A stretch of DNA of 40,486 nucleotides, from IMG/VR virus record IMGVR_UViG_2526164661_000012, one strand, 5' to 3'. The notes beneath the pieces were generated by a model that was not told the origin of the DNA, searched no databases, and saw only the letters and a program-made list of their open reading frames with translations. Every line of letters starts with the position of its first letter. Position 1 is the stretch's first letter. The position numbers and the translations under genes are program-made. This DNA comes from a virus. Lineage: Duplodnaviria > Heunggongvirae > Uroviricota > Caudoviricetes. Shown in pieces: positions 27,229 to 30,391 of this stretch.

Positions 27229-27792
27229 ATGCTTATTGGCTATGTACGCGTGTCAACAAATGACCAGAACACTGATTTGCAACGTAATGCACTGAACTGC
27301 GCGGGATGTGAGCGGATTTTTGAGGACAAAATCAGTGGCACTAAGTCCAACAGACCGGGGCTGAAAAAACTGCTCAGGACACTATCGGCAGGAGACACGC
27401 TGGTTGTCTGGAAGCTGGACAGGTTGGGGCGCAGTATGCGGCATCTTGTTACGTTGATAGAAGAGTTGCGCCAGCGAGGTGTGAATTTCCGAAGCCTGAC
27501 TGACAGTATTGATACCAGTACCCCAATGGGCCGTTTCTTTTTTCATGTCATGGGTGCCCTGGCTGAAATGGAACGCGAACTGATAGTTGAACGTACCAGG
27601 GCGGGGCTTGCTGCAGCTCGCGCCAAAGGCAGAGTAGGTGGACGCCGTCCTAAGTTGACTACCGAACAGTGGGCACAGATTGGACGCTTACTCGAGGCCG
27701 GAGAATCAAGACAGCGTATTGCACTGATTTTTGATGTGGGTGTTTCCACAATTTATAGAAAATTTCCGGCAAATAAGAGTAATGAATCGTAA
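27229..27792 (+). CDS. Serine DNA invertase, Hin/Gin/Pin/Cin family
   Basis: MLIGYVRVSTNDQNTDLQRN...VVWKLDRLGRSMRHL...FFHVMGALAEMERELI..., very close to recalled e14 Pin; track ORF starts at TTG 27223, ATG at 27229 preferred. Confidence 0.9.
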   Translation: MLIGYVRVSTNDQNTDLQRNALNCAGCERIFEDKISGTKSNRPGLKKLLRTLSAGDTLVVWKLDRLGRSMRHLVTLIEELRQRGVNFRSLTDSIDTSTPMGRFFFHVMGALAEMERELIVERTRAGLAAARAKGRVGGRRPKLTTEQWAQIGRLLEAGESRQRIALIFDVGVSTIYRKFPANKSNES

Positions 27793-27818
27793 GCGTCAAC
27801 GGAGCACCGTATTGACGC

Positions 27819-29431
27819 TTATTTATTGGTGAGTACTACGTTCCATGGCAGGAGTTCGTCAACACGGTTGGAGGGCCATTCCGGCAGTACGCTCAGAATA
27901 TGGCGCAGATACGCTTCCGGATCGATACCGTTCAGTCGGCAGGTGCCGATCAGCCCGTACAGCAGTGCTCCACGCTCGCCGCCGTGATCGCTACCGAAGA
28001 ACACGTAATTTTTCTTTCCGAGACAGACTGCACGAAGCGCTCTTTCCGCTGTGTTATTGTCCACCTCCGCCAGACCGTCATCACTGTAATAACAGAGGGC
28101 GTCCCACTGATTCAGTACATAGCTGAACGCTTCGCCCAGTCTGGATTTTTTCGACAGCGTGCCATTCTTCTCCACCATCCATTCATGCAGCGACGTCAGT
28201 AACGCTTTGCTTCGCTGCTGCCTGGCTGCAAGACGCTCTGACTCTGGTAATCTCCGTATTTCATTCTCGATGGCGTACAGTTCACTGATTCGCTTCAGGG
28301 CTTCTTCTGCCGTCGCACTTTTGCTGCTGATGTATACATCGTGGATTTTCTCCGGGCATGAGCCCAGCACGCAACTTCTGTCAGCGCACTACCTTCACGT
28401 TCTGCACTGAACAGCCTGTCATAACCTGTGAACGCATCCGCCTGCAGGATACCCCGGAAGGGGCGGAGGTGTTGCTCCGGGTGTTTCCCCTGCCGGTTCG
28501 ATGAGTACGCGAACCAGACCGCCGGAGGAGATGACGAACCCGCATTGCGATCATCCCGGACATACGTCCAGATGCGCCCTGTTTTCGTCTTTTTCAGGCC
28601 CGGTGCCAGTACCTTTACCGGTGTGTCGTCAGTGTGAAGCTTGCGGGTATTCATCACATAACGGTACAGGGCATCATTCAGCGGCGTCATTAACTGGCAG
28701 CACGCGTCAACCCAGTTGGAGAGTAATGCACGGCTCAGTTCGACACCCTGTCGGGCAAAGATTTCACTCTGACGATACAGTGGCAGGTGTTCGCAGTATT
28801 TTCCCGTTAACACGCGGGCAAGTAATCCGGGGCCCGCGATACCACGCTCTATCGGGCGGGACGGCGCCGGTGCTTCAACGATGCAGTCACATTTTGTACA
28901 GGCTTTTTTTACCCGTTCTGTGCGGATCACTTTCAGGGCGCTGCTCACCAATTCCAGTTGTTCTGCGCTGACTTCCCCCAGATAATCCAGCTCACCGCCA
29001 CACTCCGGGCAACAGCTTTCTTCAGGCTCCAGGCGGTATATTTCACGGGGGAGATGTGCCGGTAACGGACGACGATGGCGCGACTGTCGCAACTGGCGGG
29101 GAACCAGTGGGTCATCCTCACGCCCACTGTAACGATCGCTTTCCTGCTCGCGTTGTTTCAGCAGGGCTTCAGCCTGTTCAACCTCACGACGCAGTTTTTC
29201 AGAACGGGTTCCGAACAGCATCCGGCGCAGTTTTTCTATCTGAGCCCGCAGATGCTCTATTTCTCGCTCATCTTCTTCGATCTTTTCTTCGGCACGTGCC
29301 AGTGCAGAGCGCAGGAAGGCCTCCGTCTCTTCAACCAGACTCAGTTGCTGGTCTTTCTGACGGAGGGCTTCAGCCTGCTCAGAGAGCAGCCTTTCCAGCT
29401 CAGCGATGCGAATGAGGTATTTCTGACTCAT
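27819..29431 (-). pseudogene. tnpC: IS66 transposase TnpC, split by frameshift
   Basis: Track ORFs 28295..29431 (378 aa) and 27819..28370 (183 aa) together span a typical IS66 TnpC; join lies in a short homopolymer run (plus-strand T4 at about 28346..28349); one extra base gives ...CWAHARRKIHDVYISS... Confidence 0.8.
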
Positions 29432-29461
29432 GGCCGTTTTTATAATCCGGCCCGGCGTTTT

Positions 29462-29812
29462 TTACAACATTGTCAGTGCGTTAAGGCGGGATGTTTTTGG
29501 CTGACGCCAGTCCAGCTTATCGAGGAGCATTGCCAGTTGCGAGCGGGTAATGGATATCTTACCGTCACGCACCGCAGGCCAGATAAACTGACCTTCCTCA
29601 AGGCGTTTGGTGAACAGGCACAGACCATCAGCATCAGCCCACAGGATTTTAATCGTGTCTCCCCGTCGGCCACGGAAGATAAACAGGTGACCGGAGAAGG
29701 GGTTATCATCCAGCACATGCTGTATCTGCTCCCCCAGACCGTTGAAGGATTTACGCATATCAGTAACGCCGGCAACGAGCCAGATACGGGTACCTGATGG
29801 GAGTGAAATCAT
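29462..29812 (-). CDS. tnpB: IS66 Orf2 (TnpB)
   Basis: 116 aa (MISLPSGTRIWLVAGVTDMRKSFNGL...FIFRGRRGDTIKILWADADGLCLFTKRLE), characteristic IS66 orf2 sequence. Confidence 0.8.
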   Translation of the reverse strand: MISLPSGTRIWLVAGVTDMRKSFNGLGEQIQHVLDDNPFSGHLFIFRGRRGDTIKILWADADGLCLFTKRLEEGQFIWPAVRDGKISITRSQLAMLLDKLDWRQPKTSRLNALTML

Positions 29813-30243
29813 CGTCCCCTCCCGGTCAGCTCACGGATCAACACCGTGAGCAGCTCTGGTGAAGGATTTTCCAGCATCATTTTACCGTAATGGAATTCCA
29901 CATGGCAGGAAGCTGCACAAGCAACTGATAATGCCTCCGGAGCAGGAGCATCTGTAGCACAGCGCGGGGGGTCGATAAGTTCCACTGGAACCAGAGTCGG
30001 AGAGGCCGGAAAAGATTGTGATACTGTAGGGCCTACAATAGTTGGAGGCATTCTACGAGAAATACGTCCTTCTCTTTGCCAGAGGCGTAGCCATTTAAAA
30101 ATCAGGTTGTTATCAACGCCATGTTCCCGGGCCAGTTGTGCAACATTGGCATTTGGTTTCGAAGCCAGTTCAACCATATGAAGTTTAAATTCATTAGAAA
30201 ATATCCGGCGGGTTCCGGAGCGCCAGTCTGTAGGTTTATCCAT
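29809..30243 (-). CDS. tnpA: IS66 Orf1 (TnpA)
   Basis: First gene of the IS66 operon, overlapping tnpB start; ATG at 30243 preferred over track TTG at 30246. Confidence 0.7.
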   Translation of the reverse strand: MDKPTDWRSGTRRIFSNEFKLHMVELASKPNANVAQLAREHGVDNNLIFKWLRLWQREGRISRRMPPTIVGPTVSQSFPASPTLVPVELIDPPRCATDAPAPEALSVACAASCHVEFHYGKMMLENPSPELLTVLIRELTGRGR

Positions 30244-30391
30244 CAATAGAACTCCGTCTAATTTAGAAGGAGCTCTAATTTAGTCTGCAAGGAGCAGGTG
30301 TTACAGACGGCATTGGCTTTACGCTTACAATGAATCCCCCTGAATCAGCATTATTTTGATTATCCCTGAAAGCAGACAAATACCGTCATTT

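Follow-up and report, generated by a model that had tools for sequence, protein, structure and literature searches.

A probable ISEc47 insertion at the 3′ end of the invertase gene of a P2-like prophage

Between the serine DNA invertase gene and the tail sheath gene of a P2-like prophage (Peduoviridae) lies a 2540-bp element, read in the sequence at 27789-30328 with its genes on the minus strand. Its position raises the questions of which element it is, how it came to lie there and what it did to the phage genes on either side. The prophage is contained in a stretch of DNA of 40,486 nucleotides (the window) and is integrated adjoining ybjL. It displays the late-gene order of P2, V-W-J-I-H followed by FI-FII-E-T-U-D-ogr, and also has genes for portal, terminase, scaffold and capsid; the annotated 214-4 prophage and Escherichia phage Cartapus (Elveevirus) are both collinear with the window. 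Judged from its sequence, the element is very probably an insertion sequence of the IS66 family, ISEc47, which arrived by simple insertion.

Table 1 Features at and around the insertion, in window coordinates
Feature	Position	Strand	Remarks
Gin/Pin-type serine DNA invertase, 187 aa	27229-27792	+	Resolvase (3e-53), HTH_7 (1e-15)
Left target-site duplication	27781-27788		AATGAATC; invertase codons Asn-Glu-Se(r); single copy in relative
Terminal inverted repeat, tnpC-proximal end	27789-27816		GTAAGCGTCAACGGAGCACCGTATTGAC; gapped alignment of termini
tnpC C-terminal part, other frame	27819-28349	-	DDE_Tnp_IS66 profile positions 160-283 and DDE_Tnp_IS66_C
tnpC N-terminal fragment	28295-29431	-	Native residues 1-362, then 16 out-of-frame residues and stop
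Frameshift site	28346-28349		T4 vs T5 in reference copies (A4 vs A5 on coding strand)
tnpB, IS66 accessory protein, 116 aa	29462-29812	-	TnpB_IS66 (3e-36); identical to WP_000624688.1
tnpA, 144-145 aa	29809-30246	-	HTH_Tnp_1 (2e-10); identical to WP_001403014.1
Terminal inverted repeat, tnpA-proximal end	30300-30328		Reverse complement is GTAAGCGTAAAGCCAATGCCGTCTGTAAC
Right target-site duplication	30329-30336		AATGAATC; single copy in relative
Orphaned native invertase 3′ end	30337-30343	+	C CCC TGA: third base of Ser187, Pro188, stop
TGT-N12-ACA element	30392-30409	+	TGTGTGAATAACGGTACA; 77 nt upstream of sheath ATG

Identity and ends of the element

Within the element, we found matches to the Pfam families HTH_Tnp_1, TnpB_IS66, LZ_Tnp_IS66, zf-IS66, DDE_Tnp_IS66 and DDE_Tnp_IS66_C, with E-values of 4e-56 and 3e-35 for DDE_Tnp_IS66 on the two tnpC fragments. 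The N-terminal fragment comprises a leucine zipper, a zinc finger and the first half of the DDE domain. The NCBIfam model transpos_IS66 (NF033517) scored 449.8 bits on the repaired TnpC (cut-off 180), and IS66_TnpB (NF033819) scored 119 bits (cut-off 50). The tnpA stop and the tnpB start overlap as ATGA (29812-29809, read directly), which is reportedly typical of the IS66 family. Ends that begin with GTAAGCG, an 8-bp target duplication, tnpA, tnpB and tnpC on one strand, and a TnpC of the DDE type place the element in this family. An 8-bp duplication has been reported for IS66 (PMC6778807), and inverted repeats starting with GTAAGCG, as well as the arrangement in three ORFs, have been described in classic IS66 members, ISPsk01 and relatives (PMC12888890).

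The name ISEc47 is taken from the PGAP annotation of near-identical RefSeq copies, and it is with those copies that the sequence was compared. More than 20 of them match at 99.9% identity over the full length of the element (1-2540), carrying the labels 'IS66-like element ISEc47 family transposase / TnpB / transposase'; in all, 225 records match at 99% or more. Relative to the reference copy, there are three differences across the whole element, two substitutions (28253 and 28951) and a missing T at the frameshift site. In the literature, the name ISEc47 was found in one paper, as an entry in a list. The element is already catalogued and common in E. coli, and its insertion is an ordinary one.

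The element starts with GTAAGCG and ends with CGCTTAC; both ends, read inward, are GTAAGCGT. The inverted repeats are imperfect, with the first 8 bases the same at both ends and patchy agreement beyond, including a CCGT block at positions 19-22. Five other copies, located in a permease gene, a DUF932 gene, ybcN, plasmid traX and an IS30 element, define the same boundaries: homology stops exactly at the equivalents of 27789 and 30328, with the same terminal bases. Each of the five has its own perfect 8-bp duplication (ATATTACG, GATATTAA, AATGCTTT, CGGCACTG and ATTGAAAG), as has the copy in the window, which makes six of the six examined. Both the IS66 assignment and the GTAAGCG / CGCTTAC termini had been proposed in the first-pass annotation. 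The former is borne out by the profile matches, the ends and the duplication, and the latter are present at 27789 and 30328 just as in the five other copies.

The insertion site and the native gene order

That earlier reading had further taken the flanking 8-mers for a target duplication left by simple transposition, reconstructed a pre-insertion sequence that ends the invertase with ...NESP, and proposed a comparison with relatives lacking the element. We built a synthetic empty-site query by joining 400 bp of each flank and keeping a single 8-mer, which gave one uninterrupted match over 800 of 800 positions at 99.5% identity; in 679 records, a single match covered at least 80% of the query. 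The flanks of the window, when aligned to strain 214-4, overlap by exactly 8 bp on the subject. The reconstructed sequence AATGAATCCCCCTGA, reading ...NESP and stop, is present exactly in relatives and stands uninterrupted in hundreds of P2-like prophages of E. coli and in phage Cartapus, all of which have a 188-aa Gin-like invertase, a 142-bp spacer and the tail sheath gene in succession; the empty-site arrangement was also seen in other Peduoviridae. The empty site was thus recovered as predicted, and with it the duplication, which abuts both ends of the element and is a single copy in the relative, the pre-insertion sequence and simple transposition all held. A DDE transposase would produce such a structure by a staggered cut 8 bp apart, the repair of which would leave the direct repeat AATGAATC.

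Were the 8-mers coincidental, the element would have come by homologous recombination or within a larger composite structure. The sequence AATGAATC does occur six times in the window, above the approximately two occurrences expected, so that the mere presence of the 8-mer means little. However, the two copies in question abut ends that were fixed independently by the five other copies, an agreement that chance would yield with a frequency of 4^-8 (~1.5e-5), and the relative has one copy at exactly the place of insertion. In view of these end positions, the empty site and the perfect duplications in all six copies, we reject coincidence and give it practically no probability. The same alignment bears on another suggestion of the first-pass annotation, namely that native cargo between the tail-fibre module and FI, the sheath gene, had been displaced or cut off by the element; a moron or a defence gene would be cargo of this kind. 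In phage P2, a non-essential gene, Z/fun, lies between G and FI, and P2-like phages differ in this region; the case for cargo loss draws only on this general knowledge. In strains 214-4, VCSW8, C21 and W and in phage Cartapus, on the other hand, a 567-nt invertase gene (188 aa) is followed directly by a 142-nt spacer and then by the tail sheath gene. The flanks of the window fit this arrangement base for base, with the 8-mer in common and no base missing, which indicates that nothing was displaced. An adjacent deletion mediated by the IS is ruled out by the identical duplications on both sides, and the matching flanks show that no IS-mediated rearrangement followed. Lost cargo is therefore refuted by the empty-site alignment, leaving it a very small probability, and annotators have no cargo gene to seek at the insertion site.

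The occupied junction had no match in 5,426 complete E. coli genomes, nor in IMG/VR viral contigs, GTDB species representatives or JGI metagenome contigs. The insertion site is previously unseen, but trivially so; being absent from every collection searched, the insertion could serve as a lineage marker of the source strain.

The invertase matches Gin (3UJ3) at 4e-92 over residues 1-184 and is identical to the intact 188-aa allele except for the missing P188. The insertion separates the third base of codon Ser187 from the first two and lies 4 nt before the native TGA. As the IS terminus reads G-TAA-GCG, the reading frame closes at once, at a new TAA (27790-27792). The element had been described as inserted exactly at the stop codon; this is right in that it lies near the gene end and brings a TAA one codon earlier, but the insertion itself is 4 nt upstream, in the penultimate codon. 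The accompanying statement that the invertase was shortened by one residue through an IS-supplied TAA agrees with what is read in the sequence and with P188 in the intact allele. The DNA-binding domain HTH_7 spans residues 138-181, well before the lost proline, and the 187-aa protein is probably still functional. Inverted repeats of 24 nt, 96% complementary, at 25703-25726 and 27141-27164 bound an invertible segment that was found in both orientations among relatives. With Resolvase and HTH_7 domains and an adjoining invertible segment with inverted crossover sites, the enzyme is of the Din type. The IS inserted outside this segment. We suggest that the invertase be annotated as a 187-aa, probably functional protein and not as a pseudogene.

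An insertion at this position may not be neutral. Relative to the invertase gene, whose 3′ untranslated end the IS replaces, the IS genes are antisense, and the IS terminus can be written as a hairpin, AAGCGTCAA-N12-TTGACGCTT (27791-27820). Read-through from tnpC or this hairpin might alter invertase expression, locking or biasing the host-range switch of the tail fibres; were the frameshifts of the sheath and alternative fibre genes genuine as well, the tail module would be in the midst of decay or domestication. We regard this scenario as improbable.

On the other side of the element, the TGT-N12-ACA sequence upstream of the sheath gene lies 64 bp outside the IS and was left intact. From what is known of P2 late promoters, it is a candidate activator site of a likely P2-type late promoter for the sheath operon, and the insertion would then have occurred upstream of this promoter with no phage sequence lost. 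It closely resembles another match, which lies at 15856-15873 where the terminase and scaffold genes diverge. Over the whole window, TGT-N12-ACA was found 9 times against 11 expected, which is not above chance; what is suggestive about the site at 30392 is its position and its resemblance to the one at 15856. A scan of 27100-30600 for sigma-70 promoters and terminators gave counts no higher than those in shuffled sequence and no usable candidate.

The tnpC frameshift

The DDE domain of TnpC is split near profile position 165 between two reading frames, the ORF being interrupted at codon 363. Restoring one T yields a 537-aa TnpC that equals WP_001744949.1 except for G394R. With tnpC broken as read, this copy could not move by itself. 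As its ends, tnpA and tnpB are intact, it could be mobilised in trans by other copies. The frameshift noted in the first-pass annotation stands as a 1-bp deletion in the sequence as given, but it may be an assembly error, being one of three homopolymer shortfalls in the window.

These shortfalls are T5 to T4 in tnpC, C8 to C7 at 26892-26898 and A7 to A6 at 30810-30815. They are all the frameshifting indels of the window, each a 1-bp homopolymer deletion, and they span 3.9 kb. The two outside the IS lie within 2.5 kb of that in tnpC and break the tail sheath gene and a tail-fibre gene; each of the three broken genes is intact in relatives. The T4 state was found at none of the ~6,350 places in 5,426 complete E. 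coli genomes. We therefore place only a little below an even chance the explanation that sequencing or assembly produced the tnpC frameshift by under-calling a homopolymer; the real ISEc47 would then be intact and autonomous, and the prophage would have intact sheath and alternative fibre genes too. The assembly of the nearest relative, ETEC 214-4, which is of the long-read era, shows errors of the same type: PGAP flags frameshifts in four host genes in a stretch of 47 kb, and ybjL has two 1-bp deletions in A-runs, against the common reading of the window and E. coli W. Polishing with short reads is, moreover, difficult in repeats, to which IS copies belong. Yet longer runs within the IS match the reference (T7 at 28904, T6 at 28146 and 29458, and G6 at 29966), the alignable part of 1-22 kb is free of frameshifting indels (this region has 45 runs of at least 6 bases overall), and the host gene ybjL is intact despite its A8 and A7 runs. 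Among genuine frameshift mutations, too, slippage in homopolymers is the commonest, and decay may well be under way in a prophage already carrying an IS.

The position of the break within an A-run of the coding strand also brings to mind the IS3 and IS1 families, where transcriptional slippage or programmed frameshifting serves expression; the split tnpC might be expressed likewise. In this case, a +1 shift would be needed on just four A's, a run known to be too short for slippage, and thousands of related copies have a single uninterrupted 537-aa ORF, none with A4. Recoding is not known from the IS66 family. Programmed frameshifting was rejected as very unlikely, given that the related copies are uninterrupted and do not share the A4 state. 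Before the IS is called dead or the prophage defective, it should be allowed that the three homopolymer frameshifts may be assembly errors.

Comparison with known prophages and IS66 elements

The IS-free P2-like prophages and phages with a Gin-type tail-fibre switch (214-4 at ybjL, E. coli W and Cartapus) have the H fibre, invertible segment, invertase, sheath, tube, E/E′, tape measure, U, D and ogr in the order found in the window. Identity over the empty site is 97.8-99.5% in this group, and the prophages of 214-4 and W share the chromosomal location of the one described here. In contrast to the window, their invertase ends in ...NESP, and their sheath and alternative fibre genes are uninterrupted. 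The E. coli W prophage has an IS3-family element inside the fibre segment instead.

The ISEc47 copies of ETEC 120899, 602354, 504237, ETEC-2265 and TW10722 (e.g. NZ_CP025916.1, 414505-417045) are 2541 bp long and have the same termini. Their TnpA and TnpB are identical to those of the window, their TnpC differs from the one-base-repaired protein by G394R alone, and they have an 8-bp target duplication in common with it. The copy in the window is one base shorter, with T4 in place of T5 and a split tnpC.

Classic elements of the IS66 family, namely IS66 of Agrobacterium Ti plasmids, IS679 and ISPsk01, likewise have the order tnpA-tnpB-tnpC, start with GTAAGCG and make an 8-bp duplication. Their TnpC is a DDE transposase with leucine zipper and zinc finger, as in the element described here. 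The two differ in that sequence similarity is at the family level only, and the inverted repeats of the window element are poorly matched past the first 8 bases.

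Target site and flanking sequence

A 2540-bp element (27789-30328), starting with GTAAGCG and ending with CGCTTAC, is enclosed by a pair of AATGAATC repeats. With six copies of this 8-mer in the window versus ~2 expected, frequency by itself is no proof of a target duplication; the two copies flanking the element abut both of its independently defined ends, an arrangement with a probability of ~1.5e-5 by chance. A synthetic empty site, consisting of 400 bp of the left flank including one AATGAATC and 400 bp of the right flank, yielded one unbroken 800-bp match at 99.5% in E. coli 214-4 (NZ_CP025840.1), VCSW8, C21 and others, while 679 records contained a single match spanning at least 80% of it. 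Deposited phages match as well, among them Escherichia phage Cartapus (Peduoviridae, Elveevirus) at 97.8%. Direct alignment of window segments 22232-27788 and 30329-40486 to the 214-4 prophage gave a subject overlap of exactly 8 bp, and the empty site of this relative reads ...AAGAGTAATGAATCCCCCTGAATCAGC... Given this overlap and the uninterrupted relatives, the pre-insertion sequence proposed in the first-pass annotation is real. The description and core interpretation given in that annotation were right.

The element entered this P2-like prophage, which is of a common kind, through an ordinary transposition event. Since the flanks match, a later IS-mediated deletion or inversion is excluded, following the logic previously applied to IS66 (PMC6778807). 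The idea that the insertion had displaced or cut off native cargo is refuted, because in 214-4, VCSW8, C21, W and Cartapus a 142-nt spacer is all that separates the 567-nt invertase gene from the 1173-nt tail sheath gene. The occupied junction was not found in complete E. coli genomes, IMG/VR, GTDB representatives or JGI metagenome contigs.

Features of the element and its differences from a reference copy (L001)
Feature	Position	Strand	Remark
Target duplication AATGAATC	27781-27788 and 30329-30336		read directly in the window
tnpA	29809-30246	minus	HTH_Tnp_1 match
tnpB	29462-29812	minus	TnpB_IS66, 3e-36
tnpC, two frames	28295-29431 and 27819-28370	minus	IS66 leucine-zipper, zinc-finger, DDE and C-terminal domains
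C to T (vs L001)	28253		gives G394R
G to A (vs L001)	28951		silent
T5 to T4, one T lost (vs L001)	28346-28349		frameshift in tnpC

Elsewhere in the prophage, the stretches 1111-3783, 10320-13087 and 21334-22232 did not align to the closest relative and are therefore variable or cargo regions, which may represent moron or defence loci. Among the ORFs located there, one matches Peptidase_M48 weakly (11783-12865), one encodes a DUF6216 protein (21325-21843) and several lack any Pfam match. A 313-aa ORF (2800-3741, minus strand) with two separate Phage_CI_repr HTH matches and Phage_CI_C, compared to a CI repressor of 189 aa in 214-4, may reflect duplication or fusion of the repressor, or merely an over-long mechanical ORF.

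Invertase, tail-fibre segment and candidate sheath promoter region

The element had been described as inserted exactly at the invertase stop codon. The new stop is indeed supplied by the IS terminus (G-TAA-GCG), but the insertion splits the Ser187 codon after its second base, 4 nt ahead of the native TGA. The resulting 187-aa invertase equals the 188-aa allele minus its terminal proline and is otherwise identical. Its HTH_7 domain ends at residue 181, its match to the Gin structure 3UJ3 (4e-92) extends across residues 1-184, and the enzyme has probably retained its activity. The 24-nt inverted repeats bounding the invertible segment (25703-25726 and 27141-27164) both lie outside the IS; they are 96% complementary (…TTCTCCCAAACCAAGGT-like) and enclose a tail-fibre segment of ~1.46 kb, whose orientation varies among relatives, being the same as in the window in 214-4 and inverted in VCSW8. 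E. coli W (NC_017664.1) has an equivalent prophage, located at the same ybjL site, in which an IS3-family element lies within the tail-fibre segment (locus positions 7308-8485), indicating that IS insertions recur in the tail-fibre module of this lineage.

Directly 3' of the new invertase stop, the tnpC-proximal IS terminus contains a hairpin with a 9-bp stem (AAGCGTCAA-N12-TTGACGCTT, 27791-27820), followed on the plus strand by ATTTATT; it may act as a terminator or as a transposase binding site. At the other end, 64 bp beyond the IS and 77 nt 5' of the sheath ATG, a TGT-N12-ACA element (30392-30409) closely resembles another at 15856-15873, in the gap from which the terminase and scaffold genes diverge. 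Given the known make-up of P2 late promoters, it is the likely activator site of the FI (sheath) operon, a role that we infer, as the count of this motif across the window is not above chance. The IS has left this candidate site untouched.

The tnpC frameshift

Restoring the missing T yields a 537-aa TnpC identical to WP_001744949.1 apart from G394R. As read, the protein runs out of frame after residue 362, just beyond the CWAHARRK motif; translation ends 16 codons further on, and the DDE profile is interrupted near position 165 of 284. A 71-nt probe detected the T4 state nowhere else among the complete E. coli genomes, its best full-coverage matches (98.6%) being the T5 form. The frameshift annotated earlier is present in the sequence as given, but as a homopolymer shortfall it may be an artefact.

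An origin in sequencing or assembly is almost as likely as real decay. Longer runs within the IS agree with the reference, yet comparison of the window with its relatives shows just two more frameshifting indels, both again 1-bp homopolymer shortfalls, all three events falling within 3.9 kb. One of these two (C8 to C7, 26892-26898) leaves an alternative tail-fibre protein of 244 aa in pieces of 124 and 120 aa, and the other (A7 to A6, 30810-30815) breaks the 390-aa tail sheath into 112 + 278 aa. The nearest relative assembly, 214-4, shows the same type of error in host genes, whereas in the window the host gene ybjL is intact despite its A8 and A7 runs, and the alignable part of 1-22 kb has no frameshifting indel. 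The tnpC frameshift should thus be read with a quality caveat.

The affected tail-fibre C-terminal gene (26468-27201, minus strand) lies inside the invertible segment, has a glycine-rich domain and encodes a single 244-aa protein in relatives. The sheath gene (30486-31657), an FI homologue, has an A7 run in relatives and encodes an unbroken 390-aa protein there; its split here means either a tail-defective prophage or a homopolymer sequencing error. In 214-4, PGAP flagged four host genes (potG, potF-like, rimK and ybjL) as frameshifted within a 47-kb stretch, the cause in ybjL being two 1-bp A-run deletions that neither the window nor E. coli W shares. Related long-read assemblies thus commonly contain homopolymer errors.

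Other copies and family assignment

In a megablast search of 5,426 complete E. coli genomes, over 20 records, for the most part from ETEC strains, matched over the full length at 99.9%, with genes annotated as 'IS66-like element ISEc47 family transposase', 'IS66 family accessory protein TnpB' and 'transposase'; annotated ISEc47 copies measure 2541 bp. Five further copies, located in a permease gene, a DUF932 gene, beside ybcN, in plasmid traX and in an IS30 element, lose similarity to the window precisely at G27789 and C30328, and a perfect 8-bp repeat, different for each copy, borders them on both sides (ATATTACG, GATATTAA, AATGCTTT, CGGCACTG, ATTGAAAG). Among deposited phages, none contains this IS at ≥99% identity; lambda-like phages carry related IS66 elements at 92-94%.

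The repaired TnpC falls in NCBIfam transpos_IS66 (449.8 bits, cut-off 180) and TnpB in IS66_TnpB, tnpA and tnpB share an ATGA overlap (29812-29809), and the inverted repeats match poorly past their first eight bases. All testable defining features of the IS66 family were found, and the element represents a known IS of this well-characterised family, named ISEc47 by PGAP. An 8-bp duplication has been reported for IS66 (PMC6778807), and classic members have three ORFs and inverted repeats initiated by GTAAGCG (PMC12888890); the window element resembles these published members in each of these respects.
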